This document shows, piece after piece, positions 22,635-51,161 of a DNA stretch of 64,000 nt (position 1 is its first letter; each line of letters starts with the position of its first letter). The translations under genes were made by a program, and so were the position numbers. This DNA is from an uncultured delta proteobacterium (GTDB lineage Bacteria > Myxococcota_A > Polyangia > Fen-1088). Where the stretch lies: contig CAVWIP010000006.1 of the NCBI GenBank assembly GCA_963755125.1, positions 96,001-160,000 of the forward strand, written 5' to 3'. The notes beneath the pieces were generated by a model. It worked only from the letters and a program-made list of their open reading frames with translations. It had not been told where the DNA came from and ran no database searches.

Positions 22635-25600
22635 CTACTGGAGTCTCGTCGTGGGATCGCCGAGCAGGATCCAGGTGCGGCGGACGTCGAGGTCGCTGGT
22701 CGCGGCCTTGGCCGCGGCGACTGCCTGCCCGATGGTCGGCTTCTTCGCCGCGAACAGTAGCTGCATGAAGGCCGCGTCCATGGTCTGTTGCCCGGCCGAC
22801 TCGGTCATACCCGACGAGGCCCATACCGCGATGGCCCCGCCCTGCGGCGTCTTGAGCAACGATTCGCCCAGGGTTTCGCCATAGGGGTCGGCAAACCAGC
22901 CGGTCCAGCAGGTCATGCTGGACACGAAGGGCAGCTTCGCCCCGTTGGTCAGCAGGGGAACGTCGTCCATGCTCAGCAGATTGCCGTCCCAGGCGGTTTC
23001 CGACGAGTGGCCCATGTAGTTCACCAGCAGCGCGCCCTGGTCGAACGCACCCACCACCGCCGCGTGCGCCGCCGTATCGTCGGCAAAATCGCCGCGGAAT
23101 ATCTGCGTGAGAAACATGCTGGTCGGGATCTGCGCGGCCACGGCGGTGCTGGCGGCCGGGAAGTCGAAGTCGCTGGTGGCGGTGTCAGACACCAGCACAG
23201 CCGTCCTTCGCCAGTCAGCGCCAGCCGTGCCGGCGTATCCCACCAGCTTCTGCACCACTGCCGCGGCCTGGGTGGAATCGCGCACCGGCAGGCGGCCGAT
23301 GGCCAGATCGGGCAGTCCATCGTTGTTGAAGTCGACCAACCAGTCATCCGACGCGGCATAGTTGTACGTAGCGTCGACGAATTCCGTCGGCACCAGATCG
23401 AAATCCCCGTAGCCGAGGAAATTGCGCGGGTCAGCGCTGGCGGAGCCGGCCAGCAGCACGAAGCCGGGCCGTTTGCGCCAGGTCGACGATGCCAAAGCCA
23501 GGAAGTCGCGCAGCGCCTGCGGTGTCTTGTTGCCAAAGCTGAACTCGTCGTACACGTCTTCCACGTCGACAACTGCGACCACGTATCCCTGCCCCTGGCG
23601 AAGCTGAACCAGTGGAGCGAGCGCGCCCGCCACGGCAGCGTTGGTCAGCACCACCAGATTCGCCGCCTTGTCAGCCGAGTGCCAGCTTGACGGGCTGTTG
23701 GTCTCCAGGCTGTCCGGCGACGCGATCGCCCCGTCACTGAAGGCCAGCAGATTGCGCACACCCGCGCCGGCCACGTTGATTGCCACGGAATAGCCCGAAG
23801 TTCCATCGCTCTGCACCGCTGCGGAAAGCTCGTACGGGTTTTCCGTGTCGGTCACGTCCATCACGCGGATGTTCGGCGACTTGAAGCCGCTGACCACCAG
23901 CCGGCTGTCACCCGGTGCGGTCATGGACAGGGTGTCGCCGTCTGCAACGTACTTGCGCCAGTAGGTCAATCCGACCGATGCCACCAGGCTGAGATCCAAA
24001 TCGCCACCCTCGGCCCACAGAGAGATCTGGTTGGACCCTTCGATCAGCGAAGTCGACTGGTCGAGCAGCAGGTGCGCGGTGCCAAGCTCCTGGCTGTCGA
24101 ACTGGACCTGGCCCACCTGGGTGCCGTTGAGCAGGACGGCCACAACGTGGGCGCCATCCATCACGCCCTGCACCGCCACGTCCAGCGCCGCCTGGCCCGC
24201 CGGGGCCGCATCCGGGTTGATCACGTCGAGTGCGAGCGTGGTCGGCGCCGTCGCGTCGGTGGACACGATCGGCCCAAAATACTTGTTGTCCGGGTTGCCG
24301 TTCATCAGCGCCGGGAAGTAGATCACTTTCGGCGCGGACGCGACAGTGAAGGCGAAGCTGGCGGGCGCGGCATCGCTGGCCTCTGCGCTGACCTTGCCGA
24401 CCCGTTTGCCGGCGCTGGTCCCGGCCGCCAGCCAGTAGCTTCGCTCGCCGGTCCACTGGCTGTCGATCCCGGTGGCGTAGAACTCGACGGTGCTTTGCGG
24501 AACCAAACTGCGGCTGCGCGCCAGGCCTCTGATGACCAACGGAATCTGCTGGCCGTCGGCGAAAAGTTGGAGCCGGGTCGGATCGACATTGCCCAAACCA
24601 TGGTCAATCAGGTTCTGCCCGGTCACCTGATACCAGCCGGCCTGCGAGATTCCGATCTTGAGTGCTCGGCTGGAAGCCAGCGTCCATTGCACTGCGGTCG
24701 CGGTCAGCGTGGTCGGCGCCAGGCCGCGAAGAACCCGTCCCGCTGGCCCGCCCTGCACACTGGATCCCGGCGAGGCGCCCGATCCGGTCAGTCCAGCAAG
24801 TTGTTGCATGTGGGGCGCATTACGCACCTCGGGTGGAGGGTCATTCGACGGCTGGGGAACGACGGGCCCGTGGAAGGTCTGCCCACCGCGCAGATCTACG
24901 TCCGCCAGCCAGTAGCGCGTGGTGCGGGCATCGGCGCCGGCAGGCAAGTCATCCCACCAGACATAGGACCGGCCGCCGGACACGGTGGCGCGCAGACCCG
25001 CCATCAGGGCCGAGCCCGAGATCAAATGGGGCGTGACCGGGGACGAGGCATCGCCGGCCTCGCGGTATAGCCGGAAGCCGATGTTGTTGGTTTCCATGGC
25101 CGTCTGCCATTTCAGCAGAACCCGGCTGCCGTGAACTGTTGCCGTGAAGCTGACCAGGCGGACCGCTGTGGGAGAGGGCGCGCCCGTACAGGTAGCATTT
25201 AAAGTGAACCCGGTATCACCACCGGTACTCGTGGCGTTGAAGGCGGTGATAGTGCCGCCGACCTGGTTGTTTTGGTTCTTCAGCGTGACGTTTACGAGTT
25301 GAAAGGATCCAGTTCCGGTCCAGGTCTGCACAGCCACCGAGGTGATCGTCGCGCGCGTGGTGCCGCCGCATGTCCCGCCGTTGCCCCCCACCAGGAAAGT
25401 TCCGTTGTTGGTGAGGCCACCGTTAAGGGTGAGGGTGCCCGTGCCAGTGTTGGTAAAGGCACCTCCGCTTGCGACCGTCATCAAGCCGCCCGAACTCAGG
25501 GTGTTGGTGGTGGACCCCTGATCGAGCGTCGTCCCACCGCCCACGTTGACAGCACCGGTTGTAGTCACGTTCCCCGCCAAGCTCTTGGTCCCGCTACCGC

Positions 25601-27185: not shown

Positions 27186-29868
27186 CAGAATCCTCCTCGG
27201 CCCGGTGCCCGCACAGCCGCCCAGCGCGCGCATATCGTCGGGAAATTCATTTCAGTCCTCCTGGCAGCTGTGTTCCGGATACTTGTGAAAAGAACCAGGG
27301 TGGCCTTCTTATGCGCTCGGCCCCGGCTGCGATCTATTGGAGTTTGGTGGTGGGATCGCCGAGCAAGATCCAGGTGCGGCGGACGTCGAGGTCGCTGGTC
27401 GCGGCCTTGGCCGCGGCGACTGCCTGCCCGATGGTCGGTTTCTTCGCCGCGAACAGTAGCTGCACGAAGGCCGTGTCCATGGTCTGTTGCCCGGCCGGCT
27501 CGGTCAGGCCTGAGCCGGCCCATACCGCGATGGCCCCGCCCTGCGGGGTCTTGAGCAGCGATTCGCCCAGGGTTTCGCCATAGGGGTCGGCAAACCAGCC
27601 GGTCCAGCAGGTCATGCTGGACACGAAGGGCAGCTTCGCCCCGTTGGTCAGCAGGGGAACGTCGTCCATGCTCAGCAGATTGCCGTCCCAGGCGGTTTCC
27701 GACGAGTGGCCCATGTAGTTGACCAGCAGCGCGCCCTGGTCGAACGCACCCACCACCGCCGCGTGCGCCGCCGTATCGTCGGCAAAATCGCCGCGGAATA
27801 TCTGCGTGAGAAACATGCTGGTCGGGATCTGCGCGGCCACGGCGGTGCTGGAGGCCGGGAAGTCGAAGTCGCTGGTGGCGGTGTCGGACACCAGCACGGC
27901 CGTCCTTCGCCAGACAGCGCCAGCCGTGCCAGCGTATCCCACCAGCTTCTGCACCACTGCCGCGGCCTGGGTGGAATCGCGCACGGGCAGGCGGCCGATG
28001 GCCAGTTCGGGCAGCCCATCGTTGTTGAAGTCGACCAACCAATCATCCGACGGGGCGTCGCTGTACGTCGCCTCGACGAATTCCGTCGGAACCAGGTCGA
28101 AATCCCCGTAGCCGAGGAAGTTGCGCGGGTCAGCGCTGGCCGAGCCGGCCAGCAGCACGAAGCCCGGCCGCTTGCGCCAGGTCGACGATGCCAAAGCCAG
28201 GAAGTCGCGCAGTGCCTGCGGTGTCTTGTTGCCAAAGCTGAACTCGTCGTACACGTCTTCCACGTCGACAACTGCGACCACGTAGCCCTGTCCCTGGCGC
28301 AGCTTGACCAGCGGTTGCAGTGCACCTGTCACGGCAGCGTTGGTCAGCACCACCAGATTGGCCGCCTTGTCAGCCGAGTGCCAGCTTGACGGGCTGTTGG
28401 TCTCCAAACTGTCCGGCGACGCGATCGCCCCGTCACTGAAGGCCAGCAGATTGTGCACGCCCGCGCCGGCCACGTTGGTCGTCACGGAATAGCCCGAAGT
28501 TCCATCGCTCTGCACCGCCGCGGAAAGCTCGTACGGGTTTTCCGTGTCGGTCACGTCCATCACGCGGATGTTCGGCGAGTTGAAGCCGCTGACCACCAGC
28601 CGGCTGTCACCCGGTGCGGTCATGGACAGGGTGTCGCCGTCCGCAACGTACTTGCGCCAGTAGGTCAACCCGACCGACGCCACCAGGCTGAGATCCAAAT
28701 CGCCACCCTCGGCCCACAGAGAGATCTGGTTGGACCCTTCGATCAGCGAAGTCGACTGGTCGAGCAGCAGGTGCGCGGTGCCAAGCTCCTGGCTGTCGAA
28801 CTGGACCTGGCCCACCTGGGTGCCGTTGAGCAGGACGGCCACAACGTGGGCGCCATCCATCACGCCCTGCACCGCCACGTCCAGCGCCGCCTGGCCCGCC
28901 GGGGCCGCATCCGGGTTGATCACGTCGAGTGCGAGCGTGGTCGGCGCCGTCGCGTCGGTGGACACGATCGGCCCAAAATACTTGTCCGGGTTGCCGTTCA
29001 TCAGCGCCGGGAAGTAGATCACTTTCGGCGCGGACGCGACAGTGAAGGCGAAGCTGGCGGGCGCAGCATCGCTGGCCTCTGCGCTGACCTTGCCGACCCG
29101 TTTGCCGGCGCTGGTCCCGGCCGCCAGCCAGTAGCTTCGCTCGCCGGTCCACTGGCTGTCGATTCCGGTGGCGTAGAACTCGGCGGTGCTTTGCGGAACC
29201 AGGCCGCGGCTGCGCGCCAGGCCTCTGATGACCAACGGAATCTGCTGGCCGTCGGTGAAAAGCTGGAGCCGGGTCGGATCGGCAGTGCCCAAACCATGGT
29301 CAATCAGGTCCTGCCCGGTCACCTGATACCAGCCGGCCTGCGAGATTCCGATCTTGAGTGCTCGGCTGGAAGCCAGCGTCCATTGCACTGCGGTCGCGGT
29401 CGGCGTGGTCGGCGCCAGGCCGCGAAAGACCCGTCCCGCTGGCCCGCCCTGCACACTGGATCCCGGCGAGGCGCCCGATCCGGTCAGTCCAGCAAGTTGT
29501 TGCATGTGGGGCGCATTACGCACCTCGGGTGGAGGGTCATTCGACGGCTGGGGAACGACGGGCCCGTGGAAGGTCTGCCCACCGCGCAGATCTACGTCCG
29601 CTAGCCAGTAGCGCGTGGTGCGGGCATCGGCGCCGGCAGGCAAGTCATCCCACCAGACATAGGACCGGCCGCCGGACACGGTGGCGCGCAGACCCGCCAT
29701 CAGGGCCGAGCCCGAGATCAAATGGGGCGTGACCGGGGACGAGGCATCGCCGGCCTCGCGGTATAGCCGGAAGCCGATGTTGTTGGTTTCCATGGCCGTC
29801 TGCCATTTCAGCAGAACCCGGCTGCCGTGAACCGTCGCCGTGAAGCTGACCAGGCGCACCGCCGTCGG
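22635..29868 (-). repeat. About 2.5 kb near-identical duplication (22635-25172 vs 27334-29868)
   Basis: From PTAVRLVSF to the stop the copies are 2538 and 2535 nt, differing by one codon (PDNKY/PDKY) plus scattered substitutions. Confidence 0.95.
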
Positions 29869-32100: not shown

Positions 32101-32133
32101 AGGTATTCTTCCTCTTCGGGCAAACGATCGCAT

Positions 32134-32328
32134 CTAGGTGGCAATCTCGACGCCACAGAGCCGGCACGCGCCTGCCGATGGACCGGCTGTTGTCGATGTC
32201 TTGCAGGCGCCCAGAACGGCCTCTTCCGGCCTGAGCTTGATGCTTGTCAGCTTGGGCGGCGCATAGGGCTTCCTGCGCGCTGGCTTGGTCGATGTGGTCG
32301 CTGTCTTGCTGTCTTCACTGTTTTGCAC
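32134..32328 (-). CDS. RiPP precursor peptide 1 (64 aa)
   Basis: GGAGGAG SD 6 nt before GTG 32328; KPYAPPKL leader motif, LRPEEAVLGACK, and a core with 3 Cys; overlaps the rSAM gene stop. Confidence 0.8.
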   Translation of the reverse strand: MQNSEDSKTATTSTKPARRKPYAPPKLTSIKLRPEEAVLGACKTSTTAGPSAGACRLCGVEIAT

Positions 32329-33478
32329 TGAGATCTCCTCCACCAATCTGCTGACAGTACTGGCACTCCCCATGTGGCTGCACCGAAACGTCCAGAGCAC
32401 GCGCCCGCAGGTGGGCCACCTCGCAGTAGAAAGCGGGCGAAGCTTCCGGGTCGCCATGTTCCAGCTCGCCGTTGGGCGGGCAGACCCCGCACAGGTGCCG
32501 GATCGAACAGTCCAGGCACTTCGTCACACGCGAAACCTTCCTGCGCCGCTCCGCCAGAACAGCGCCTTCCCAGCCCGTCAGGAAGCGCCCGCTGCGCAGA
32601 TCGTATTTTGCGCCAGGCGAAAACAGGCACAGGTTCATGCCGCCGTACGCGTCGATGGCAAAGGCGTTGATGCCGGCCTTGCAGAAGTAGATCTCGCGCT
32701 TGGGATGAAGCGCGGGGAAACAGCCGCCGAACTCCCTGTCCAGATCCTTCCACTCGGCCGCCTGCTTGGGGTTGCGCATCTCCAGGTCCACTACGGTGTT
32801 GGCGGAAACCCGGAAGAGAAGCGGCCGCTGCGACAGGTCGAGACGGGGGTTGACCATGGGATCGAGCCTGAAAACCAGCCCGAGTTCCTTCTCCACCAGA
32901 TCTCTCATCCGTTCGACCTCGTGCTGGTTGACAGTCAGAACGATGGTCTTGAGGCTGAGCGGGATCTTGCGGTCGCACAGCAGGCGGATCGCTCGCATGC
33001 ACTTGTCATGGGAACCCGGAACGCGCGTGACACTCTCGTGGGTTTCTCGGGTGCTGCCGTAGATCGTGATCTCGACCGCGTAGGGGCGCCAGGCGGCCAG
33101 GTGGTCCGCGATGCGCGGGGTGATGAGCGAGCCGCCGGTAAACAGAGTGACCAGCAGCCCCTTCTTCTTCGCGTGGGTGAAGATGTCGAGAAAGTCCCCG
33201 CGCGCGAAGATCTCGCCCCCCGTATAGGTGAGCCACAGGCAGCCGGCCTCGACGATTTCATCGATGATGCGGATGTGCTCGGCAGTGCTCAGTTCCCGGC
33301 GGGCGTTTTCCTCGTCGCGCAGCGGGAGGTTGTTGTAGCAGTGTACGCAGTCGAGCGGGCAGCGTCGGGTGACCTCGATCATCCCATGGACGGGCAGACG
33401 CTTGCTGCACCACACGTCCTGCACTTTCGTGTGGAAGTCACGGTATGAGATGCTTTCGATCACTAATTGTGGCTCCAT
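32315..33478 (-). CDS. Radical SAM/SPASM peptide maturase
   Basis: CPLDCVHC, TGGE; SPASM-type CKAG...LC...CLDCSIRHLCGVC...YC. Start uncertain (33463-33523). Confidence 0.9.
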   Translation of the reverse strand: MEPQLVIESISYRDFHTKVQDVWCSKRLPVHGMIEVTRRCPLDCVHCYNNLPLRDEENARRELSTAEHIRIIDEIVEAGCLWLTYTGGEIFARGDFLDIFTHAKKKGLLVTLFTGGSLITPRIADHLAAWRPYAVEITIYGSTRETHESVTRVPGSHDKCMRAIRLLCDRKIPLSLKTIVLTVNQHEVERMRDLVEKELGLVFRLDPMVNPRLDLSQRPLLFRVSANTVVDLEMRNPKQAAEWKDLDREFGGCFPALHPKREIYFCKAGINAFAIDAYGGMNLCLFSPGAKYDLRSGRFLTGWEGAVLAERRRKVSRVTKCLDCSIRHLCGVCPPNGELEHGDPEASPAFYCEVAHLRARALDVSVQPHGECQYCQQIGGGDLSAKQ

Positions 33479-33614: not shown

Positions 33615-34556
33615 ATGAGTAAAGCCCAACCTCCCTGGAATGGCCGTCGCTGGTTCCAGATCGGTGGAATCACGATTCAGGTTGATGCCGATCGGCCCAT
33701 CACGTCGCAGACTTTCGCGCCCAAGTTCGAGGCATTCGCTGTCGACGGCCCCGGCAGCGACACCGTCTTCATCCACCACCGCTTCGGCCTCCCTGATCTG
33801 CAAGGCCGCAACCTCGGCCGCCAGGTGTACCGGAAGACACCGTGGGCAGTGTTCGAGAGGCCGGATGCGTGGTTCTACCTGGGCATCGCGATGGATCCCG
33901 ACGATACGCGGCTGTTCGCCTTCGCTGAGTTCGACCGGGAGCACAGCCGCGGCACGATCTGGAGCCCCACCGATGGCAGGTTCGTGCAAGGTGGACTGAA
34001 CTCCCTGACCACGTTCCCCACCGATCAGATCGTGCTGGCGCGCGTGCTGGCCGACCGCCGCGCGTGCTACCTGCACTCCTCCGCCGGCATCGTCAAGGGC
34101 GCGGGCCTGTTGTTCCTCGGTCATTCCGAGGCGGGCAAATCGACCACTGCGGGCATGCTCGACGGGTACGCCGAGATCCTGTGCGACGACCGCAACATCG
34201 TGCGCCGGTGGCCCGATGGCTTCCGCGTCCACGGCACCTGGAGCCACGGCGAGATCCCGCGCGTGTCTGCGGCCTCGGCTCCCCTGGCCGCGATTTTTCT
34301 TCTGAGCAAGGCCGAGGAAAATCGCCTGGTGAAGGTCACAGATCGCGTGCGCCTTGCGACCGTGCTGGCGGCGTGCATGATCAAGCCGGTGGTGGATGTG
34401 GGCTGGTGGGAGAAGAGTCTGGACCTGATTGAAACCATGATGAACGAGATCCCCTGCTACGAGATGCGATTCGACAAGAGCGGCGCGATCGTGCCCGCGC
34501 TGCTCGACCTGGCGCGGAGTTTTTCGCCCACGACACGAGCCGAGGGCGCGCCATGA
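33615..34556 (+). CDS. HPr-kinase-like P-loop protein (ScmC-like/RiPP-associated kinase)
   Basis: LHSSAG, GHSEAGKST (Walker A), ILCDD, GTWSHGE. Confidence 0.75.
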   Translation: MSKAQPPWNGRRWFQIGGITIQVDADRPITSQTFAPKFEAFAVDGPGSDTVFIHHRFGLPDLQGRNLGRQVYRKTPWAVFERPDAWFYLGIAMDPDDTRLFAFAEFDREHSRGTIWSPTDGRFVQGGLNSLTTFPTDQIVLARVLADRRACYLHSSAGIVKGAGLLFLGHSEAGKSTTAGMLDGYAEILCDDRNIVRRWPDGFRVHGTWSHGEIPRVSAASAPLAAIFLLSKAEENRLVKVTDRVRLATVLAACMIKPVVDVGWWEKSLDLIETMMNEIPCYEMRFDKSGAIVPALLDLARSFSPTTRAEGAP

Positions 34557-34855
34557 GCCCATCGCTTGCCCCGGATGTGCGGGTCCGCCATTCGGACGAC
34601 GTGGTCGCGCGGCTGATCGAAGGCGAGCTCCTCATCGTTCCGCTGATGTCCGGCGTGGGCGATCTGGAGGACGAGCTGTACACGCTCAACGAGACGGGCA
34701 GGGCGATCTGGGAAAAGCTGGACGGCAGCCGAACCATTGATGACGTGGCCCGCGAGATGGCGCGCGAGTTCGACGTCGCCGAGGAAACCGCCCGGCTGGA
34801 CGTCGCCAATCTGGTGGAAGAACTGCTGGGAAGGAAGATCCTGGTTGCCGGCTGA
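34553..34855 (+). CDS. PqqD-family RiPP recognition element (RRE)
   Basis: LYTLNETGRAIWEKLDGSRTIDDV; 100 aa. Confidence 0.9.
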   Translation: MSPSLAPDVRVRHSDDVVARLIEGELLIVPLMSGVGDLEDELYTLNETGRAIWEKLDGSRTIDDVAREMAREFDVAEETARLDVANLVEELLGRKILVAG

Positions 34856-35357
34856 CGGCGCGCCGCCCGATTCGCATTTCGCCGCCGGCAATGCCCTGGA
34901 GATCTCCGGGGAGCAATTGCAGGAGTTGCTGGACGCCGTTCTTTCCCGGGGCCGCCCGCTGCGCTTCCGGGCGCGCGGGTTCAGCATGGGCCCGCTGGTG
35001 CAGGACCGCGACGTGATCACCATCTCGCCCCTGGCCGGCCGGCGGCCCGGCACCGGCGACATCATCGCCTGCCGCCTTCGCCCGAGCAGGCGCCTGGTCG
35101 TCCATCGTGTGCGCGCGGTCAGGTCCGACGGCTTGCTGGTCCAGGGCGACAGCGCGTTCCTGCCCGACGGAATGATCCCGCTTGGCGACGTGCTGGGACT
35201 GCTCACCCTCGCCGAGCGCGACGGCGTGGTGATTTATCGAACACGGCACAACCATCCCGCGACTGTCCGTCACCTGGCGTGGATCGTCCGGCGCTGGAGG
35301 AACCGGGCCGCCGGTGTCGCCCATCGGCTGAGAGAGCGCTGGTTTTCGCCTGGGTGA
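34845..35357 (+). CDS. S24/S26-family peptidase (putative leader peptidase)
   Basis: RGFSMGP, GDII, VVHRV and QGD motifs; TTG start inferred. Confidence 0.78.
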   Translation: MPADGAPPDSHFAAGNALEISGEQLQELLDAVLSRGRPLRFRARGFSMGPLVQDRDVITISPLAGRRPGTGDIIACRLRPSRRLVVHRVRAVRSDGLLVQGDSAFLPDGMIPLGDVLGLLTLAERDGVVIYRTRHNHPATVRHLAWIVRRWRNRAAGVAHRLRERWFSPG

Positions 35358-37160: not shown

Positions 37161-37228
37161 GCGTCGCGAGCCAATGTCACGGTTGGCAGTCAAGGCGCGC
37201 CTTTTCGGGAAACGGCTACACTTGCCTC

Positions 37229-38554: not shown

Positions 38555-38555
38555 G

Positions 38556-41349: not shown

Positions 41350-42951
41350 GTGAGACATTCGGCTACGGTGCTCCCTGGCATGGGCCAGACTGGATTCATG
41401 GCAACGCTGCCGAAAGTCCCTGCGCGGACATACGCGCCGTTTGGCCTCGCTGTGTTGGTGGTGACGCTGTTTTCGGCATACACAGCCTATCGGTCCAGCG
41501 TCGTCATTGACCACGAACGGTATTTTTGGCTCGACGACGACCAGATGATCTCGATGCGCTATGCCCGCAACCTGGCCGAAGGGCAGGGGTTGGTCTGGAA
41601 CGCGGGCGAGCGGGTCGAGGGCTACTCGAATTTCGGCTGGGTTGTGGTGATGGCGGGCGTTCACCTGCTGCCTTTGTCGGATGCAAAGACCGCGCTGGTC
41701 ATCAGGATCATCAACTGGGGCCTGGTCATCGCCTTGCTGCTCCTGGCACGCCGGCTGCTGCGCCGGCTGCTTCCCGATAGCGGGCTGGAAGCAGCGATCC
41801 TGCTGCTCGTGCTTTCGGTCTGCGCGGACGTCGTGTTCTGGTCGGCGAACGGGACCGAATTCACGCTTATTGGCGTGTTGTTCCTGTGGGTGGTTGATCG
41901 GCTGTTCGAAGAATCCACGACCAAGCGTCCGCGCGTCGCGACCTACGCCGTGCTCGGCGTGCTCGTCTGCATCCGGGCCGATGGCCTGCACCTGTGGCTG
42001 GCGGCAGCCTTGCTGGCACTGGGCCTTTGGCGCAGTCGCCGCGGCTTGGCACTGCTCGCGCTTTCTCTGCTGCCCGTCGTCGCCCACCTGCTGTTTCGGC
42101 GTGCCTACTACGGGCTCTGGTTGCCTAACACCTACTACCTGAAGGTCGATTCGGTCCCCGGCAAGCTGCCGTCGGGCCTGGGCTACTCATTGGGATTCGC
42201 CATCCACTATTGTCTCCCGCTGCTCTTGGCGCTACTGGGCGCGATCATCAGCCGACAGCGCTGGCGTTGGCTGCTGTTGGGTGGCATCGGGATCTCACTC
42301 GCCTACGTCGTGGGCGTGGGCGACGTGTATCCGCACTTCCGTTTCCTGGCGCACGAGGTGCCGGTTTTGCTGGTGCTGGCGTTGGCCTGCACACGCGACA
42401 TGGGTGTACGGGCACGCCCCATCCGTGCCCTTCTCGGCGTCGGGCTGGCCTTGACGGTGATCCTGGCGACCGGGTTGCTGACCAGGAACTCGGTGATCTC
42501 GAAGAATGGCAATCCGCTGGTTGGCACGACCATCGGCGTGACCATCCGGAACAACGCCGGCGCGCAGGACCGGGTGGCTGTCCTGGCTGCCGGCGCTGTC
42601 GGCTATTTCAGCCGCCGCCCGATGATCGATCTGCTGGGCAAGAGCGATCCGCAGGTCGCCCGCCTGCCGGGCTTGCCCTTTGGCGGAGCTGGACACAACA
42701 AGTACGACCCTGGCTTCAGCTTCGGCCGCGGTGCCGACCTCTTGGTTTACGGTTTCGGCCCAGACGAGGCGCGCCAACTCACAGGCAGCGGATACAACGC
42801 TGCCGTCGCGCACGATCCGACGTTCGTTCGCGAGTTCCTACCCAACAGCCTGGCGGTGAGCGTGCTGTCGAGCCGGGGGTACATCTACTTCCGCGGATCG
42901 TCCGGGGCGGCGCGCAGGGATGCCTGGCGACTGCCCGTCATCGAGCGCTGA
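41350..42951 (+). CDS. GT-C-fold membrane glycosyltransferase (arabinofuranosyltransferase-like)
   Basis: DDDQMISMRYARNLAEGQGLVWNAGERVEGYSN, RADG, PNTYYLK, IDLLGKSD. Start may be 41380 or 41398. Confidence 0.75.
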   Translation: MRHSATVLPGMGQTGFMATLPKVPARTYAPFGLAVLVVTLFSAYTAYRSSVVIDHERYFWLDDDQMISMRYARNLAEGQGLVWNAGERVEGYSNFGWVVVMAGVHLLPLSDAKTALVIRIINWGLVIALLLLARRLLRRLLPDSGLEAAILLLVLSVCADVVFWSANGTEFTLIGVLFLWVVDRLFEESTTKRPRVATYAVLGVLVCIRADGLHLWLAAALLALGLWRSRRGLALLALSLLPVVAHLLFRRAYYGLWLPNTYYLKVDSVPGKLPSGLGYSLGFAIHYCLPLLLALLGAIISRQRWRWLLLGGIGISLAYVVGVGDVYPHFRFLAHEVPVLLVLALACTRDMGVRARPIRALLGVGLALTVILATGLLTRNSVISKNGNPLVGTTIGVTIRNNAGAQDRVAVLAAGAVGYFSRRPMIDLLGKSDPQVARLPGLPFGGAGHNKYDPGFSFGRGADLLVYGFGPDEARQLTGSGYNAAVAHDPTFVREFLPNSLAVSVLSSRGYIYFRGSSGAARRDAWRLPVIER

Positions 42952-42993: not shown

Positions 42994-43845
42994 TCAAGAT
43001 CCCGATAGCACGCGGCGGATGGCTTCGCGATCGATACCGTCGAGGGAGAAACCGAGTTCGTAGGCAGGCACCTTGCGGAACAGGCGGCCAAGGTTCCTGA
43101 TGGCCATGCCGTCGGAGGGAACGAACAGGCGCTGGAGGTTGTCCGCCTGCTCTGTCGCGCTTCGGATCAGGGCCTGCCGGGCGGTCAATGGTTGCAGCGA
43201 GAACGCAGCCTGTTTTCGCGGGAAGAAGATCGCACGCAACGGCGCCGAGCCTACGCCGTCGGACTCGCGACCAAGCGGCGTGGCGTGCAAGAGAGGTTGC
43301 GTGTCGATGTCAGTCACCGCGACCACATCGTCCGAAAGCAGCCGTTCCCCGCGAATGAGCCGGGCAGCGGTTGTCTTGCCAGCCTCGGACGGGCCGATGA
43401 CCGCGGCGGCGACTCCCTCCATGACGAAACCGGACCCATGCAGCATCACACCGTCGCTCGCGGAAAGAAGACTGCCAAGCAGACGAAAGAGCTGGCTACG
43501 CAGGCACTGGTCCTCGTCAGCAGACTCGAAAACGAAGGATTCCATCAACCAAGTGGAGCGTCGGACGAAATCGGCAACCCCGTAGCAGCACCAGAAAAGT
43601 TCATCCTTATCCACTCGCATTCGATGTGACAACTGACGCTGGACTACCTCCGGGTAGTCCCAGACGGGGCGGTCAGGATCAGGCTGAGGATCAGACACCA
43701 CCCTGATGACCAACCTCGCATCAAGTTGGGTGCCTTCCGACAAAAAGGGTCGATAGGGGAGCGTGTGCAGAAGCCGCTCGTACTTTTCGGGAAGGGTCAG
43801 ACCGACTTGCCGGCCACCAGTCGTGATCCCTGCGTCCACGTCCAT
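42994..43845 (-). CDS. HPr-kinase-like P-loop protein (ScmC-like)
   Basis: MLHGSG, GPSEAGKTT, LLSDD, ATPLG. Confidence 0.72.
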   Translation of the reverse strand: MDVDAGITTGGRQVGLTLPEKYERLLHTLPYRPFLSEGTQLDARLVIRVVSDPQPDPDRPVWDYPEVVQRQLSHRMRVDKDELFWCCYGVADFVRRSTWLMESFVFESADEDQCLRSQLFRLLGSLLSASDGVMLHGSGFVMEGVAAAVIGPSEAGKTTAARLIRGERLLSDDVVAVTDIDTQPLLHATPLGRESDGVGSAPLRAIFFPRKQAAFSLQPLTARQALIRSATEQADNLQRLFVPSDGMAIRNLGRLFRKVPAYELGFSLDGIDREAIRRVLSGS

Positions 43846-43916
43846 GAATCACGGTAGATCGAGGGCCACCCGGTGCTGAGCCATGGTGATCCCCGTTGCA
43901 CCAAACTCCTCAAGAG

Positions 43917-44180
43917 TCATCCGCCGAGGACCGTTGAGCCGCTGGAGCAGTGAACTCCGCTACCGGGGGAACATAGGTTGCCACCCGAGTCAGATGACCC
44001 GGTAACGCAAAGGCCGGACACGCCGGGACTGCTGCCATCAACGCAGCCGCCTGGCGACGCCGTGTACCCCGTGTGGCAAATACCCATGGGGCTCGCGTTC
44101 TTGTCCTCTGACAGCCAGCCAGCCCGAGCGGTTGGCAAAGACAGGTCCGTGAGGGTTGGCTTTTCGTAGGGTCGTTTCAT
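43917..44180 (-). CDS. RiPP precursor peptide 2 (87 aa, five CxxG repeats)
   Basis: GGAGGA SD; MKRPYEKPTL leader; CHTG, CVDG, CVTG, CSPG, CSSG. Confidence 0.85.
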   Translation of the reverse strand: MKRPYEKPTLTDLSLPTARAGWLSEDKNASPMGICHTGYTASPGGCVDGSSPGVSGLCVTGSSDSGGNLCSPGSGVHCSSGSTVLGG

Positions 44181-44205: not shown

Positions 44206-44481
44206 TCACACGGCGTCGCCCATCAGGCTCTTGCCCTTCAACGCGGTCAGGAATTCTTCCACGTCTTTTGCGGCTGCCTCCCGACTTCCGATGTCGTACT
44301 GGCGCATAAGACAATCTACCAGATCCTCGCGCGAGTGAGAACCGTCGAGCAGGCCGAAGAGAAAGGCGCCCGTGGTGTTCAGGATCTGCACCGCGCCGCT
44401 TTCAGGGTGAAAGAGCAAGGCACCGTCGTCTTCCTGGTCCACGGTGATCTCGGGGTTGGCGATGGGGCAGCCCGGCTTCAT
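44206..44481 (-). CDS. scmD: PqqD-family RRE (ScmD-like)
   Basis: EDDGALLFHPESGAVQILNTTGAFLFGLLDGSHS; ATGA overlap. Confidence 0.85.
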   Translation of the reverse strand: MKPGCPIANPEITVDQEDDGALLFHPESGAVQILNTTGAFLFGLLDGSHSREDLVDCLMRQYDIGSREAAAKDVEEFLTALKGKSLMGDAV

Positions 44482-45053
44482 GAAGGATCCTTGGTTGCGA
44501 TAGCTCGCAGCCGTCGCTCGACCGTAGTGTTCTTGAAGACCGGATGGATCCACATGGCATCCCCGCAGGCCTCGGTTCTGCGCCAAGCCACGAGCTTTTT
44601 CAAGAGATACAACCTCACGGTCTCGCGGCTGTCACTGGCCACGAAACGAACCGTCCGCAGTGGGACGGCAGCGCCGACCACGGGCGCCAGCAGCCTGGCG
44701 CTTAGCCGCAAGATGCCGCGCAGTCGGCGCAGCGGGCGGGCCGCGTGAAGCCAGAGGCGCTCCTGGGCCCGGGAGATGCCGCGCAACTGGTGTTTCTTCC
44801 AGCGCGCCACCACCTTGCCCACGATGCGCTCGGCTGGCACCACGCCGTCGGGGCACGGCAGGTTGTCGCCCTGGGTGACGATCCCGCGGCGGGTGGAAAT
44901 CACCCGGTGCACGACCGGCTGTCCGGCCTGGTCGTGGAAAACGATGACGTTGCCGACGCGGATGTCCCTGGGTGCAACCTGCTCGACAGCGGCCAGGCTT
45001 CCCGGCGGCAGGAAAGGCCGCATGCTGCTGCCGCGCACGAGCATCGGGGTCAC
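44478..45053 (-). CDS. S24/S26-family peptidase
   Basis: RGSSMRPFL, VVHRVI, TQGDN, IVGKV. Confidence 0.8.
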   Translation of the reverse strand: MTPMLVRGSSMRPFLPPGSLAAVEQVAPRDIRVGNVIVFHDQAGQPVVHRVISTRRGIVTQGDNLPCPDGVVPAERIVGKVVARWKKHQLRGISRAQERLWLHAARPLRRLRGILRLSARLLAPVVGAAVPLRTVRFVASDSRETVRLYLLKKLVAWRRTEACGDAMWIHPVFKNTTVERRLRAIATKDPS

Positions 45054-46159
45054 GGCGCAACCTCCGGGGCGCCTGGCTGGCTGCGCGGACGCAACAGGCG
45101 CCTGGGCGGGAACAGCCCGGCGTCAAGCGCCTGCTGGCAGAACTGGAAGCCCGCGAAGAGATCGCCGGTGGCCCAGAAGTTGTGCGCCAGGCACTTGCCC
45201 ATGCAGTGCCGGCGGAACACGCACCTGCCGCACACGCCGCCCAGGGCGTCGGGCAGGCGATCGCGAATGGCGAGCAGGGTGGGATTGCTCTCCCAGATGG
45301 TGCGCAGCCCGACCTCGAGCGGATTGCCGAAATCCAGGGCTGCCACGCGCTCGCCGATGCCGCACAGGCTGGCGCGGCCGGTGCTCAGGATGCCGAGGAT
45401 GGTCAGAATGCCGCAGCTACAGCCGGCCTGGGCGCGAATCTCGGCCAGGGACTTGAAAGCCGGCGGCACGTCGAAGAACACGCGTAGCTTGGTTCCCGCG
45501 GGAATCGACGGCGCCAGGCCGTGGTAGGCGTCCAGCACCTCGGCGACCGAGAGCAGCTCGCCCTGCCGTTGCATCTCGGCCGAGCGGCCCATCGAGTTCA
45601 CCACGTTGACCTTCAGACTGGCGACGCCCAGGTTTTCCGCGAGCCGCACCATGTCCGGCAGCACCTGCCGCGTGCCCCGGTGAAGGCAGGCGATGATCTG
45701 GAACGGCGGCCAGCCCTGCTTGGTCAGGCTTTCCACGCCGCGCAGGGCACGGTCGAACGCGCCCGGCACCCCGCGCAGCTCGTCGTGCAGCTTCGCGGTG
45801 GGGCCGTCGAGCGAGATCGACACATCGGTGCCGGTCTCGCGCAGCACCTCGGCCTGCTCGGCCCCGATGAGCGTGCCGTTGCTCTCCATGCGCAGCTTGA
45901 GGCCCATCTGGCGCAGCCCGCGCAGGATGTCGAGAATCTCGGGGTGCATGAAAGGCTCGCCGCCGGTCAGCTTGACCGCGCGCAGGCCCAGTTCCTGCGC
46001 CTGCACGAAGATCTTGCGCAGCTCGGACCAGGGTAAAAAGCGCTGCGACTCGGTCCCGAAGCCAGGATCGATCCAGCAGTGGCGGCAGCGCAGGTTGCAG
46101 GTGCCGGCGAGGTACAGATAGATCTCGGCCAGCGGCGGGGTTTCACAGGGCTGGGACAT
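45050..46159 (-). CDS. scmF: Radical SAM/SPASM protein, ScmF-like
   Basis: CNLRCRHCWIDP, LTGGEP, CGILTILGIL...LCGIG...CGRC...C...C; GGAGGG SD before ATG 46159. Confidence 0.82.
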   Translation of the reverse strand: MSQPCETPPLAEIYLYLAGTCNLRCRHCWIDPGFGTESQRFLPWSELRKIFVQAQELGLRAVKLTGGEPFMHPEILDILRGLRQMGLKLRMESNGTLIGAEQAEVLRETGTDVSISLDGPTAKLHDELRGVPGAFDRALRGVESLTKQGWPPFQIIACLHRGTRQVLPDMVRLAENLGVASLKVNVVNSMGRSAEMQRQGELLSVAEVLDAYHGLAPSIPAGTKLRVFFDVPPAFKSLAEIRAQAGCSCGILTILGILSTGRASLCGIGERVAALDFGNPLEVGLRTIWESNPTLLAIRDRLPDALGGVCGRCVFRRHCMGKCLAHNFWATGDLFAGFQFCQQALDAGLFPPRRLLRPRSQPGAPEVAP

Positions 46160-47531
46160 GACCACCCTCCGCCAGGAAGCGCCGGTAACAGTCCGCCAGG
46201 TGGGGGCTGCGCAAAGAGCCGGTGACGGCAAAGGGCACCGCCGGGCAGCTTCCGTTGCAGAAAGGCCTCCAGTCGCAGTCCTTGCACTCAGCCACGTCGT
46301 CCATGGGGATCTCGCGCCGCTCGCGCAGGGAGCGCAGGTGCGGGTGGCCGCGCCAGATGTCGCGGATGGGGGTTTCGCCGATGCGGCCCATCACCATGGT
46401 CGCCAGCATGTTGCAAGGGGTGATGGTCCCGTCGTGGTTGACCGCGATCTTGTCGAACACGCAACCGCAGGCGGTCAGGCGACCCATGAGCGGGGTGCGC
46501 GCGCCACCCGCGAAGCGGGCGGTTTCCATGGCGTGAAACATGCGCCAGCGGACAAGCGGGCCGGCCAGGGCGGTCACGCGGCCTGGGTAGCGTTGATCGA
46601 GACGGGCCAGGGTCAGCATGGCGGCGCGTTCCAACTCGGGCGGAAGCCGGATGCTGTCGGCGTGGCGGCAGGAACCCATCTCGACGGCATCGTTGGTGCT
46701 GAAGCCGCGCAGCCCGACGTCATTCAATAGCAGCTCGGCGATGCCTTCGAGATCGCCGACGTTGTGCCGGTTGATGGTGACCCGGCTGGTGACCGGCAGG
46801 CCGGCCTGCTTGAGCAGGCGCAGCCCACGCAGCGCCTTTTCGAAAGATCCGCGGCCGCGCGAGGCATCGTGGATCTCGGCGCACGAGCCGTCGATGGAAA
46901 CCTGGATGCTGTCCAGCCGGGTCCGGCGTTCCAGCAGCCGCGCCACGATGGCGTCGTCCACCAGGGTTCCGTTGCTGAGCAGCGAGTAGCGCATCCGGTT
47001 GTCGATCGCGCGGTCGATGAGTGTCCAGAGATCGGGGCGGGTGAACACCTCGCCGCCTGACAGGCAGACGCTGCGCACCGCCAGCGAGCCGAGTTCGTCG
47101 AAGAAGGCCAGCCATGCGTCGGCGGGCAGGTCGGGCCGCTGCTCCATCTCGTCGGCGTAGAAACAGTAGGTGCACTTGGCATTGCAGCGGCCGGTGACGG
47201 AAACGTCCACCTGTTTGGGGGCGTCATCAAAGTCGATCTGCGCGACGGGCGGCGCTGCGCTGGCGGGGGAGGGCTGCACGAACCCCTGGGCAGAAAGTTC
47301 GGCGGCGAACGTCTGCACGTCGCTTGCGGCTGACTCGGCGTCAATCCCCTCGAAGCCGTCAGCCATGTCGCCGGCGATCTGGTCCAGGCTGCGCGTGCCA
47401 TCCATCCGATCCCAGATGAAGGTGCCCGTCTCGTTGAGCAGGCGCTCGCGGCCCAGGTCAGCCTGGTAGAGCAGGGCACTGCCGCCGCCGACGCGCCTTG
47501 CGGACACGCAGCGAGCGCGGGCAACCGCCAT
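46143..47531 (-). CDS. scmE: PqqD-fused radical SAM/SPASM protein, ScmE-like
   Basis: N-terminal LNETGTFIWDRMDG (RRE); CNAKCTYC; LTACGC...TPCN...CKDCDWRPFCNGSC. Confidence 0.82.
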   Translation of the reverse strand: MAVARARCVSARRVGGGSALLYQADLGRERLLNETGTFIWDRMDGTRSLDQIAGDMADGFEGIDAESAASDVQTFAAELSAQGFVQPSPASAAPPVAQIDFDDAPKQVDVSVTGRCNAKCTYCFYADEMEQRPDLPADAWLAFFDELGSLAVRSVCLSGGEVFTRPDLWTLIDRAIDNRMRYSLLSNGTLVDDAIVARLLERRTRLDSIQVSIDGSCAEIHDASRGRGSFEKALRGLRLLKQAGLPVTSRVTINRHNVGDLEGIAELLLNDVGLRGFSTNDAVEMGSCRHADSIRLPPELERAAMLTLARLDQRYPGRVTALAGPLVRWRMFHAMETARFAGGARTPLMGRLTACGCVFDKIAVNHDGTITPCNMLATMVMGRIGETPIRDIWRGHPHLRSLRERREIPMDDVAECKDCDWRPFCNGSCPAVPFAVTGSLRSPHLADCYRRFLAEGGHVPAL

Positions 47532-47606
47532 GTTCGAGCAGGCCTGGCTCACAGGCCGAAAGCGTAGCACCGGTTGCGCAAGGACGCAGGCAAGTCGGGC
47601 GTAGCG

Positions 47607-47650
47607 GCCACGGCCGCGACCACGACCACGAGCACGACCTTCTGTGGCTG
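47607..47650 (+). repeat. Degenerate hexamer element copy
   Basis: gccacggccgcgaccacgaccacgagcacgaccttctgtggctg. Confidence 0.5.
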
Positions 47651-47681: not shown

Positions 47682-48923
47682 CTACTTCGCGGCCTGCGCG
47701 AGATCCCGGTGCTCGAAGGCGCTGGCCATGCGGTCGAGCTCCTTCGGCTTGAGCCCATGCTTCTTCCCCGCCGAGCGCCAGGCCCGCACCGCGGCCGCTA
47801 CCTCATGCGCGATCTGGCGCGCCACTTTCGTGCCGAGACCAAACCTGGGCGCCACCTCCCGGACCGTGTCCATCGAGGCAGTCGCATCCGTCTCGCTGAT
47901 CGCCAGAGCGTGCACGCGAGGCCTGACGTCAGTGGGCATCGGATTGAGGTCATTGGCCGGCGCCAGCCGCCAGCCGACTCCGTCGTGGAGGAAGCCGTGG
48001 TTGCGCAGATGATCGTCGGTGTTCGACACTAGGACGTTGAACACCAGCCGGCGCCATAGCTCGCCCAGATCCTTCGCCGCCTGCGCGCCCTCGCGGCGCA
48101 GGGCATCGACGATATCGAGATAGCTGTGCATCTGGTTGTCGTCCGCCGCCACCGCGGTCATCGCTGACATGAAGGGAACGCGCGCCGCCCCGTCGCGGTC
48201 GAAGCGGCGCAACAGCAGCACGGGCTTCCGTGTCGCGAGCGCCAGACGGAAGACCGGCACATGAATCCCGGCCCGCTTTGCCAGTTCGAGCGCCGTCGCC
48301 TCCCAGCGCATGACCGGCCACTCGTCCGAGGCGGCGGGGAACTTGGCAACCAAGAGGCCGCCATCGCTGTCCCTCACCGAGGCTTTGGGGCGCGCCCCGC
48401 CCAGCGAGGTGCCGGGCGCGAGCACGAGCGCAAGATCCTCGTCGGTTTCCTCGTCGGCCATGATCCGGTCGGTCGCCGCCAGCAACTTGGACAGGGCGAT
48501 GACAGGCGGAACGCGCGTGCCGCCGGTCGAAAGGAAGGGGCCGCCGTCGGCCTCCGCATCACGAAAGCGGAGGACGCCCAGGCGAGTCTCGTCGTCCACC
48601 AGGGTGAGGAAATCGACCGCGGTGAGCGTGCGTGGGTTTCGGCCCTCGCGCCTGGCGCGGGCCCGCTCGGCACGGCGCAAGAGCATCTGGCCCCAGCGAT
48701 CCGGAGCAGGATCGGTGAAGGCGCGGAAGATGGGACGTCCGCTATGGAACGGTCCGGCCGCCAATGGCAACTCGGGATCAAGGGCAAAGCCGCGCCGGCT
48801 GGTGCGCCAGGCGAGGTCGTACTCGAAGGAGGCGCTCTCGTGCGGCGCACTCCGGGTCCACAGCCTGCCGCACAAGACCGGCTGGCCGCCGAGGTCGGCG
48901 TGGACCAGAAGCTCGCGGTTCAC
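47682..48923 (-). CDS. hipA: HipA-family toxin kinase
   Basis: PDRWG, GTSLGGARPKAS, NTDDHLRNHGF, LAPANDL. Confidence 0.92.
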   Translation of the reverse strand: MNRELLVHADLGGQPVLCGRLWTRSAPHESASFEYDLAWRTSRRGFALDPELPLAAGPFHSGRPIFRAFTDPAPDRWGQMLLRRAERARARREGRNPRTLTAVDFLTLVDDETRLGVLRFRDAEADGGPFLSTGGTRVPPVIALSKLLAATDRIMADEETDEDLALVLAPGTSLGGARPKASVRDSDGGLLVAKFPAASDEWPVMRWEATALELAKRAGIHVPVFRLALATRKPVLLLRRFDRDGAARVPFMSAMTAVAADDNQMHSYLDIVDALRREGAQAAKDLGELWRRLVFNVLVSNTDDHLRNHGFLHDGVGWRLAPANDLNPMPTDVRPRVHALAISETDATASMDTVREVAPRFGLGTKVARQIAHEVAAAVRAWRSAGKKHGLKPKELDRMASAFEHRDLAQAAK

Positions 48924-49264
48924 GCCGGGCCTCCCACGGGGCGCGGACGCGGCGGGCGTACCCGCCGGGGCAACCGCTCCGCCTCCAGCGCGCGACCGAG
49001 GTCATCGCTGCGCGGGTCCGCCAGCTCTCCGATGCGCTCGCCCATGCCCAGCACGAATAGCACGGTCGCGTAGATTCCCATGGACACGCCGGCGTCACCC
49101 TGCTCGACGCGGCCCAGGGTGGTCCGGCTGATCATCGCCCGCTCGGCCACCATGACCATGGTCAGCCGCCGACGCCGGCGGGCCGCGGAGATGTCCTGGC
49201 CCAGCTTGCGCAGGGCTCGCACGAGCGCGGCCGGGAGGGCGGGCAGGGCACGGGAGTTTTTCAT
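48920..49264 (-). CDS. XRE/HTH antitoxin (HipB-like)
   Basis: ARRRRRLT...VAERAMISRTTLGRVEQG; overlaps the hipA start. Confidence 0.88.
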   Translation of the reverse strand: MKNSRALPALPAALVRALRKLGQDISAARRRRRLTMVMVAERAMISRTTLGRVEQGDAGVSMGIYATVLFVLGMGERIGELADPRSDDLGRALEAERLPRRVRPPRPRPVGGPA

Positions 49265-49325: not shown

Positions 49326-51161
49326 TCAGACGCCGCCGGCCCGCATCTGGCGTTGCCAGGCGCGGGCGTAGGCGCCGCCCTTGGCCAGCAGTTCCGCGTG
49401 CCCGCCGGACTCGATCACTCGTCCCTCGTCCATCACGTGAATGCGGTCGGCGTACATGGCGGTGGTGAAACGATGGGTGATGATCAGCGCGGTCCGTCCC
49501 TGGGCCAGCGCGCGGAATCGCGCCAGCCAGTCGGCCTCGGCCCAGGGGTCCATGGCGCTGGTGGGCTCGTCGAGGATGATGACCGGGGCGCGGCGCTGGA
49601 ACGCGCGCGCGAGCGCGATGCGCTGCCACTCGCCCACACTCAGGTCGTTGCCTCCCGCGAACCATTTCCCCAACAAAGTGCTGTCGCCCTCGGGCAGCCG
49701 GGTGACGATCTCCCTGGCCCCGGCTTCGTCGATGGCCTTGTCGATTGCGGCCTTGCCAGGGGCCGCATCGAGATCCCCGAGCGCGATGTTCTCGGCCACC
49801 GTGGCGCTGTACTGCACCGGCTCCTGCATCAGCACGGTGACCAGGCGCCGGATCTCGCGCAGCCGCATCTGGCGCAGGTCCACCCCGTCGATCTGGAGCG
49901 AGCCAGCGTCGGGATCGTACAGCCGGCAGAGCAGCTTCACCAGGGTGCTCTTACCCGCGCCGTTGCGGCCCACCACCGCGGTGATCTGGCCGGCGGGAAT
50001 GGCCAGGCTGAAGTCCTGCAGGGCCGCTCGCTTGCTCCCCGGGTAGCGGAAGGTGACCTTGTCGAGCGCGATGCCCTGGGTCGGGGGCGAGGGCGCGGGC
50101 AGCGCGCGGTCCTGGTCCACCACCTTGCGATCGAGCGACAGAAACGCGAACAGGTCAGCGAGAAACAGGCTGTTGCTGTACGCCTCGCCCACGCTGGCCA
50201 GCAGGGAGCCGGCCAGTCCCTGTCCCTGGTTGAAGGCCTGGAAGAAGAGCGCGAGATCCCCGAGGCTGGTCTGCTGCTGGGTCGTCCGCCACACCATCCA
50301 CAGCGCCGCGCAGGCGGTGACCAGCAGGCCGCACGCGCTCGCCGCGGCCTCGGCCAGCCCCTGGTCGCGGGCCAGTTTGCGCCGCTCGCCGCGAAGCTGT
50401 TTGCGCACCGCCTGGTAGGCCGACTGAAAGTGCCCGCCGAGATCCAGCAGGCGCAACTCGGCGGCGGGCTGGCGCGCGGTCAGCAGCCAGTCAAAGTACC
50501 AGCTCCGGCGCTCGGGCGCGGTCGCCAGCAGGCGCCAGCGGTACAGCCGCAGGCGATGGTGCAGCAGCACGAAGAAGGCGGGCAAGGTGCTGACCAGCAG
50601 CGCGGCGGGCAGCCACACGCCGTAGCGAAGCAGCACGGCCACCATGGCGACCAGGGTGATGCCGTGCTGGAGCATGCTGCCCAGGTTTTCCAGCAGCATC
50701 ATGGGCCGGAAGCTGGCCTCGCTCTGCGCGCGATGGAGATGATCGAAGTAGTCGGGCAGATCGTAGTAGGCCAGGTCGACCTCAACGGACTTGCGGTGAA
50801 TCAGGGTGCGGATGTGATCCTGGACCAGCTCGGACAGGGTGGCGCGCACCCAGCCGGCCGCGCTTCGCAGCACCCCGCCCACCAGCATGACAGCCGCCAT
50901 CAACCCGAGCGGCAGCAGGGTGGGCCGCAGGGTTTGCCAGGTGGCGCCCCGGCGCAGGACCGGCACCAGGCTGTCCACCACGGATCGGGTCAGCGTCACG
51001 GTGGCGACCGGGAGCAGCCCCTGCACGGCCAGCAGCACGACCCACGCGACGGTCCAGCCCGGAGCTGCGTGGCGGACCAGGCCCAGGGTGCGCGGGAAGT
51101 ACGGGAGCAGCGACAACGTCCGCCGGAGCTTGGCGGAGATGAGGTTCAGGCTACCCGGCAT
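49326..51161 (-). CDS. ABC exporter, fused permease/ATPase (peptide-exporter type)
   Basis: GRNGAGKST, LSVGEWQRIALARAF, ILDEPT; no N-terminal C39 domain. Confidence 0.9.
   Translation of the reverse strand: MPGSLNLISAKLRRTLSLLPYFPRTLGLVRHAAPGWTVAWVVLLAVQGLLPVATVTLTRSVVDSLVPVLRRGATWQTLRPTLLPLGLMAAVMLVGGVLRSAAGWVRATLSELVQDHIRTLIHRKSVEVDLAYYDLPDYFDHLHRAQSEASFRPMMLLENLGSMLQHGITLVAMVAVLLRYGVWLPAALLVSTLPAFFVLLHHRLRLYRWRLLATAPERRSWYFDWLLTARQPAAELRLLDLGGHFQSAYQAVRKQLRGERRKLARDQGLAEAAASACGLLVTACAALWMVWRTTQQQTSLGDLALFFQAFNQGQGLAGSLLASVGEAYSNSLFLADLFAFLSLDRKVVDQDRALPAPSPPTQGIALDKVTFRYPGSKRAALQDFSLAIPAGQITAVVGRNGAGKSTLVKLLCRLYDPDAGSLQIDGVDLRQMRLREIRRLVTVLMQEPVQYSATVAENIALGDLDAAPGKAAIDKAIDEAGAREIVTRLPEGDSTLLGKWFAGGNDLSVGEWQRIALARAFQRRAPVIILDEPTSAMDPWAEADWLARFRALAQGRTALIITHRFTTAMYADRIHVMDEGRVIESGGHAELLAKGGAYARAWQRQMRAGGV

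Follow-up and report, generated by a model that had tools for sequence, protein, structure and literature searches.

What joins a pathway for a small modified peptide to two giant proteases encoded directly beside it? The question is raised by a 64,000-nt window (the whole stretch of DNA analyzed; positions 96,001 to 160,000 of contig CAVWIP010000006.1, assembly GCA_963755125.1) from an uncultured delta proteobacterium, in which a cassette for a RiPP (a peptide made on the ribosome and modified after translation), here called cassette 1, runs into two genes of the C25 peptidase family, C25-A and C25-B. Comparison of gene neighborhoods makes it almost certain that a radical S-adenosylmethionine (rSAM) peptide pathway resembling that of linear polyphosphorylated peptides (LPP) is linked to a cargo-fused, PorU-like enzyme; LPP and PorU are the nearest systems known. 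Our tentative answer, for which we would claim a little less than an even chance, is that cassette 1 belongs together with the C25 genes as a single conserved unit, whose peptide would be a surface anchor for the cargo. A preliminary description of the window had treated two peptide cassettes, the C25 proteins, two GT-C transferases and an exporter as a single island; it is partly supported, the half concerning cassette 1 and C25 being strong.

Genes were located by open reading frame listing, a codon model and family scans, and all genes named in that description were confirmed as real (Table). As it had stated, rSAM1, the gene for precursor peptide 1, C25-B and C25-A form one same-strand run, here on the minus strand; the coordinates agree, with 33 nt from the stop of precursor 1 to the ATG of C25-B. 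Precursor 1 overlaps the end of rSAM1 and is preceded by the ribosome site GGAGGAG, and the HPr kinase-like (HPrK), RiPP recognition element (RRE) and S24 peptidase genes of cassette 1 are set apart in a divergent operon on the plus strand. In an independent run, DNA contigs span the junctions. RNA contigs from three runs cover parts of both cassettes and of both C25 genes here and there; among the pieces listed, none bridges 32100-32330, and a promoter and terminator scan gave a signal near shuffle level. A single copy of C25 occurs in the same layout in a congener (L012; loci are numbered L, genomes G). Relatives in the same family carry the labels Polyangia or Myxococcales, the holders being metagenomes from peat, wetland and soil.

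Homologs of rSAM1 are numerous (3394 at E 1e-60 among 8000 scored candidates), and a single-protein query of genome contigs returned one locus. Linkage was assessed in 251 genomes from the phylum of a Thermoanaerobaculia genome, which we take to be Acidobacteriota, 33 of which yielded 39 rSAM hits. With coordinates compared by hand, and with G439, where the genes lie at opposite contig ends, left uncounted, a C25 gene was found within 15 kb of 20/39 rSAM hits (17/33 genomes) against 0.92 expected. Among 25 genomes of the window's own family, strong rSAM and strong C25 hits fell in the same 8, at thresholds chosen after the data were seen and with weaker C25 hits alone in 4 of the 25. Because these thresholds were post hoc, 39 further genomes were tested prospectively with a profile: 9 held both rSAM and the junction domain that precedes the C25 enzyme, none held rSAM only, 2 the junction domain only and 28 neither (11 junction domains and 9 rSAMs in all), and the two were on the same contig within about 5 kb in 8 of the 9. 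In the reverse direction, 9 of 20 control genomes without a strict rSAM hit carried C25, and 7 of the 8 fetched have a divergent rSAM within 8 kb of it. In the window's own phylum rSAM is rare, occurring in only 3/251 sampled genomes. Over the 39 pairs, rSAM and C25 identities correlate with a Spearman coefficient of 0.64 (0/2000 permutations), a figure inflated by kinship, and the deep clades of the two trees match, apart from single misplaced tips.

In some loci the two gene sets are also physically joined. C25 runs straight into an RRE or rSAM gene in L121-L123, L126, L128 and L130, and lies inside the cassette in L026. In seven loci (L063, L083, L090, L107, L108, L115 and L148, the last from a same-family relative), S24 peptidase, basic linker, signal peptide, cargo and junction domain share one stop-free frame, which reaches the PorU-like part in 6/7, L063 stopping at a contig edge; L085, L099 and L101 are partial cases. 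In such fusions the peptidase would stay tethered on the cytoplasmic side after signal cleavage, and at some of these loci separate initiation is possible because an internal Met precedes the signal. Elsewhere S24 is fused to a nucleotidyltransferase (L112) and to what reads as a GNAT-like domain (L118). To judge from these neighborhoods, many uncultured bacteria carry giant PorU-like proteases together with a gene set for a small cysteine-containing peptide and its modifying enzymes, the two being fused in some cases. No paper on a coupling of C25, RiPP and radical SAM was found in a search largely without subscription journals.

C25-A and C25-B, the only two C25s in the genome, both match PF01364 (E about 1e-79), with the C25 domain at the C-terminus. 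The two genes are tandem duplicates that show 92% DNA identity over 2978 nt and differ in cargo. The preliminary description had called them gingipain/PorU-like, and the alignments favor PorU, since C25 profile positions 156-850 align to residues 12-785 of PorU 6ZA2 (E 7e-48), whereas gingipains align to the profile only over the catalytic part. The last 860 residues gave a confident predicted model (pLDDT 85) with PorU as best fold match, and the catalytic His and Cys are invariant in 27/27 C25s. As in PorU (PDB 6ZA2), N-terminal domains are combined with a C25 catalytic domain bearing a His/Cys dyad, and the cargo ends in an Ig-like domain preceded by a linker. Unlike in PorU, the enzyme is preceded in the same chain by cargo and junction domain, the proteins fall below the cut-off of the PorU model NF033707 (201-210 bits against 420), they are genetically tied to a peptide cassette, and no type IX secretion system (T9SS) signal was found in them: TIGR04183 gave 0 matches, in a scan where no positive control matched and other T9SS genes were not searched for. 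They are cargo-fused relatives of PorU, which they resemble more than gingipain. Some C25s (L016, L017, L024, L026, L029, L030 and L068), mostly from same-family relatives, carry a hydrophobic Arg-rich C-terminal tail that resembles a myxosortase signal; C25-A and C25-B are without it. Genomes G294, G312 and G328 hold 14 to 24 C25 matches each, two fetched loci being without a junction domain.

Between cargo and enzyme lies an FN3-like junction domain, which starts directly after a conserved Thr, where a low-confidence linker ends. In predicted structure comparison it folds as a generic FN3/Ig sandwich (best Z 10.2, root-mean-square deviation 2.2 over 95 residues), the best Z standing about 1 above the FN3 entries; the fold matches listed include no T9SS signal structure, and kinship with such signals may still exist. 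A homolog directly precedes the T9SS signal in Hymenobacter WP_244678451.1 (E 5e-5), and another is the C-terminus of Herpetosiphon Haur_5066 (E 1e-6). Within the present genome only the two C25 proteins carry the domain, and elsewhere stand-alone cargo genes ending in it adjoin C25s that lack one (L178, L181 twice and L182). PorU cuts at X/(GSA) and attaches cargo to free amines, among them those of peptides (PMC4560394), the cut falling in the linker before an Ig-like domain independently of sequence (PMC4804311 and PMC4560394). Because of this precedent and the placement of the junction domain, the C25 protein may be cargo, tag and sortase in one chain. The available text of PMC12860637 and PMC11611037 holds no cleavage data for the junction domain.

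The peptide itself has conserved motifs. Among 77 distinct precursor homologs from related loci, collected with a filter that required CK and not terminal Ser, 74 end in Ser, 73 have three or more Cys, 62 have E[AS]VLxxCK and 52 conserve an xGS tail. Precursor 1 has the leader motif YAPPKL, RRE 1 matches PF05402 (E 2e-17), HPrK1 has a Walker A motif with only weak ScmC/HprK hits, and the S24/S26 peptidases of both cassettes carry GxSM, VVHR and QGD motifs, peptidase 1 scoring below and peptidase 2 above the TIGR02228 cut-off. These parts recall the LPP pathway of Bacillota, in which a signal peptidase I (SpI)-like enzyme cleaves after F-E-T with the assistance of an RRE and HprK phosphorylates the peptide (Popov et al. 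2026, PMC13381572). Shared with it are the discrete RRE, the YxxPxL leader, the SpI-like S24/S26 peptidase and the HprK kinase. LPP clusters often hold nucleoside triphosphate (NTP) transferase and polysaccharide genes (PMC13381572), and so do the surroundings of cassette 1 homologs, with NTP_transf_5 beside 12 homologous loci (82/125 candidate neighbors and L112 scanned). Unlike LPP, cassette 1 includes a radical SAM/SPASM enzyme, has cores rich in Cys and is partnered by C25, is found outside Bacillota, has its predicted phosphosite at the last residue instead of core Ser3, and belongs to a genome in which no NTP transferase was found. Since the FET|S site is retained in distant precursors (L141, L150) and the spacing to the first Cys fits, the leader is probably cut at EEA|VLG, which would give a core that starts Val-Leu-Gly, has no Ser at position 3 and carries its hydroxyl residue at the terminus. 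A core starting AVL, as mimic of a PT|AV leaving group, was considered and rejected, because LPP spacing sets the cleavage behind EEA and because AVL is fixed, unlike the junction residue. The phosphorylated lasso peptides pseudomycoidin and paeninodin (PMC6993621) likewise have an HprK kinase, a conserved C-terminal Ser and NTP-transferase neighbors, and in pseudomycoidin phosphorylation of the terminal Ser is followed by hexosylation, dependent on the NTP transferase (PMC6993621); cassette 1 differs in having rSAM, and the scanned genes include neither a lasso cyclase nor a B2 peptidase.

The plus-strand operon of cassette 1 has affinities of its own. HPrK1, RRE1 and S24 (33615-35357) are nearer to three-rSAM cassettes with an rSAM-HPrK fusion (L138-L140) than to most cassette 1 homologs (for HPrK1, E about 1e-90 against about 1e-10 to 1e-24), and the operon may for that reason have been recruited.

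By analogy with these systems, the unit might work as follows. The radical SAM enzyme would crosslink the peptide. The RRE would bind the YxxPxL leader, S24 would remove the leader and HPrK would phosphorylate the last residue, as homology to LPP and, for the kinase, pseudomycoidin suggests; the mature peptide would then be exported. C25, acting like PorU, would sever its own cargo within the linker, at PT|AV immediately ahead of the junction domain, and attach it to the peptide by transpeptidation. More speculatively, the acceptor amine could be the N-terminus of the peptide or the Lys of CK, and the phosphorylated tail could be bound to a glycan of the surface; having a free amine at one end and, at the other, a phospho-linkable tail, the peptide would suit the role of a linker. 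In its fullest form the proposal is one of widespread, T9SS-independent surface display, where a PorU-like sortase with fused cargo would cleave itself and attach that cargo to a crosslinked phosphopeptide linked to a surface glycan, so that a RiPP would replace anionic lipopolysaccharide (A-LPS); this we consider possible and rather doubtful.

Several observations weigh against the peptide as anchor. The window's own precursor 1 ends in Thr, a residue that LppK did not accept (PMC13381572), and NTP_transf_5 (PF14907) gave 0 matches in this genome, in a scan whose control matched in 2/14. The predicted core begins with Val (Ser or Arg in distant clades), as opposed to the (GS)(VLI) preference of PorU, and the invariance of CK is partly built in, since CK was part of the precursor filter. 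On the C25 side, the junction Thr is followed by various residues (A, I, L, E, S, K, F, R) and stand-alone cargo is without PTAV. Four of the 33 rSAM-bearing genomes have no intact C25, and many PorU-like C25 genes have no cassette within 8 kb, most such genomes holding one elsewhere. The tree correlation is one of shared history and not of contact, because kin are not independent. The passage of a 1500-aa protein across the outer membrane without T9SS is left unexplained by the proposal.

The modified peptide might instead regulate C25, as inhibitor, activator or latency switch, with no ligation to cargo. Regulation would account for the same linkage, fusions and tree congruence, would let one cassette serve several scattered C25 genes, and recalls that the solved PorU structure is titled a latent dimer; we think it unlikely, as it leaves over the conserved terminal Ser and the recurring nucleotidyltransferase and polysaccharide genes. 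In another arrangement, C25 would ligate cargo to a glycan amine like PorU, and the peptide would be a separate phosphorylated product that contributes to the same surface or capsule process, co-expressed without contact: LPP and paeninodin clusters lie in capsule loci and the available text of the LPP paper makes no mention of C25 (PMC13381572), Wzy_C and sugar transferases recur, and the genomes with a cassette and no C25 point the same way. The repeated S24-C25 fusions, overlapping genes and deep co-divergence, however, exceed the usual loose co-regulation, and we give this arrangement a similarly low chance. Other clan CD enzymes trim or cyclise plant cyclic peptides, and C25, with its dyad intact and the xGS tail present in most precursors, could be an extracellular maturation enzyme that trims or cyclises the peptide into a diffusible product. 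That is rather improbable, given that a leader peptidase is already present, that this reading leaves the huge variable cargo and the junction domain without a function, and that some genomes hold many C25 genes for one peptide.

Finally, both cassettes, the GT-C genes, the ABC exporter and both C25s could serve a single pathway that builds a glycosylated structure at the surface. They fit within 29 kb, and each cassette ends against a convergent multi-transmembrane (multi-TM) gene (gaps 174 and 42 nt), so that the convergence reported in the preliminary description stands. Only Atlas features (0.99; PMT_2 in 44% and 38% of cluster members) mark these two genes as GT-C-like. The shared parts list that it had drawn up was likewise found by family scans: YxxPxL Cys peptide, PqqD/RRE, rSAM/SPASM, S24/S26 peptidase and HPrK-like gene. 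The cassettes are not copies of each other, the paired parts being 26-32% identical and cassette 2 having two rSAMs. Cassette 2 is by its family matches SynChlorMet-like (TIGR04248-TIGR04251): ScmE (TIGR04250) passes its cut-off, and ScmF, ScmD (47 against 100) and ScmC (17 against 125) are each the best NCBIfam hit below theirs; unlike SynChlorMet, an RRE is fused in front of ScmE. ScmE occurs in 0/40 relatives, 1/250 phylum genomes and 8/251 of the other sample, and neither C25 nor either GT-C gene was found at any of the 9 ScmE loci other than this one, four of them on contigs under 15 kb; the claimed coupling to C25 is supported for cassette 1 and not for cassette 2. The one exporter does exist; it appears to go with cassette 2, an ABC gene being present at 6/9 of these ScmE loci, and not with the whole island, and an ABC gene also lies near some cassette 1 homologs. 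Co-occurrence of GT-C genes, which the description had predicted beside homologous cassettes where C25 is in fact enriched, was not borne out: with 57/60 multi-TM neighbors scanned, PMT_2, GT87 or TMEM260 (PMT/AftB-type matches) appeared in 4/78 loci of at least 6 kb, some of which duplicate each other, and none was placed as here. The two GT-C genes are unrelated to each other and without tblastn match in the related loci tested, the genome holds 22 other PMT_2 matches (14 over cut-off), and the island's middle is a patchwork when compared among 10 congeners. ScmE cassettes do stand beside cassette 1 relatives in three other genomes (below). A single pathway is very improbable, and already largely refuted by these comparisons; we read cassette 2, the HipA/helix-turn-helix (HTH) pair and the two GT-C genes as separate acquisitions or chance neighbors of the unit formed by cassette 1 and C25.

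Table. Features of the island in window coordinates
Feature	Position	Strand	Remarks
C25-A, 1516 aa	22635..27185	-	signal peptide, variable cargo, FN3-like junction domain, PorU-like region, C25 domain (His1393, Cys1426)
FN3-like junction domain of C25-A	24855..25172	-	starts at PTAV (Thr673)
C25-B, 1588 aa	27334..32100	-	tandem duplicate, different cargo (His1465, Cys1498)
FN3-like junction domain of C25-B	29551..29868	-	Thr746
Precursor 1, 64 aa	32134..32328	-	YxxPxL leader, EEAVLGxCK, two further Cys, terminal Thr
rSAM1	32315..33478	-	radical SAM, SPASM-type Cys; no NCBIfam family over cut-off among the best 25 listed
HPr kinase-like protein 1 (HPrK1)	33615..34556	+	Walker A motif
RRE 1	34553..34855	+	PqqD, PF05402
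S24/S26 peptidase 1	34845..35357	+	start uncertain
GT-C-like membrane protein 1 (GTC1)	35532..37037	-	neighbor, non-conserved part
GT-C-like membrane protein 2 (GTC2)	41401..42951	+	AftB-like, two paralogs elsewhere in genome; neighbor, non-conserved part
Cassette 2 HPr kinase-like (ScmC-like) protein	42994..43845	-	family scan
Cassette 2 precursor 2, 87 aa	43917..44180	-	CxxG repeats, no CK, no terminal Ser
Cassette 2 RRE (ScmD-like)	44206..44481	-	family scan
Cassette 2 S24/S26 peptidase	44478..45053	-	TIGR02228 over cut-off
Cassette 2 ScmF-like rSAM/SPASM	45050..46159	-	340 bits, cut-off 400
Cassette 2 RRE-fused ScmE rSAM/SPASM	46143..47570	-	402.5 bits, cut-off 400; start uncertain
HipA-like toxin and HTH antitoxin pair	47682..49264	-	alone in two relatives at >=91% identity
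MsbA-like ABC exporter	49326..51161	-	goes with ScmE cassettes

Among the GT-C genes, GTC1 had no relevant Pfam or NCBIfam hit and GTC2 a weak AftB hit; an acidic DDE motif is invariant in 9/9 GTC1 homologs, with no Pfam pass. Of the multi-TM neighbors of homologous cassettes, 9 hit Wzy_C (a raw count), 3 TPR only and 8 nothing, and some GT-C may have been missed because of the last two groups. By this survey GT-C genes are not conserved partners of the cassettes, nucleotidyltransferase and polysaccharide genes recurring instead.

The HipA/HTH pair sits between cassette 2 and the ABC gene, the relatives in which it is found alone being congeners. ScmF had no plasmid match, and no paper on SynChlorMet was found in a search largely without subscription journals. 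At L138, L140 and L151, ScmE cassettes beside cassette 1 relatives make up multi-rSAM peptide islands without C25 nearby. In run X7, one strain swaps 708 nt for 683 other letters at window 43380-44089, a replacement that spans the precursor 2 core and the N-terminal half of HPrK2; peptide and kinase domain may be exchanged as one module.

Short repeats that occur in many copies in congener genomes border island modules at about 35400-35500, 37190-37360 and 47605-47650. Between the cassettes (37376-41051) lie an AAA_14/DUF4143 ATPase, an S8 peptidase and a lipocalin-like protein, none of them conserved beside homologous cassettes in the loci tested. Convergent on C25-A is a PKD/Ig-domain protein with a lipoprotein-like N-terminus (20850-22541), whose position is kept in a congener.

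According to PMC13381572, LPP and paeninodin-type phosphopeptides have no known role, and for PorU relatives outside Bacteroidota no known substrate was found in the papers searched, largely without subscription journals. The unit formed by cassette 1 and C25 ties these two questions together. Each half is a variant of a known system, and the coupling would be categorically new if ligation were shown; if the peptide is indeed the acceptor, a RiPP would have a structural role and the C25 protein would be a new single-chain protein ligase.

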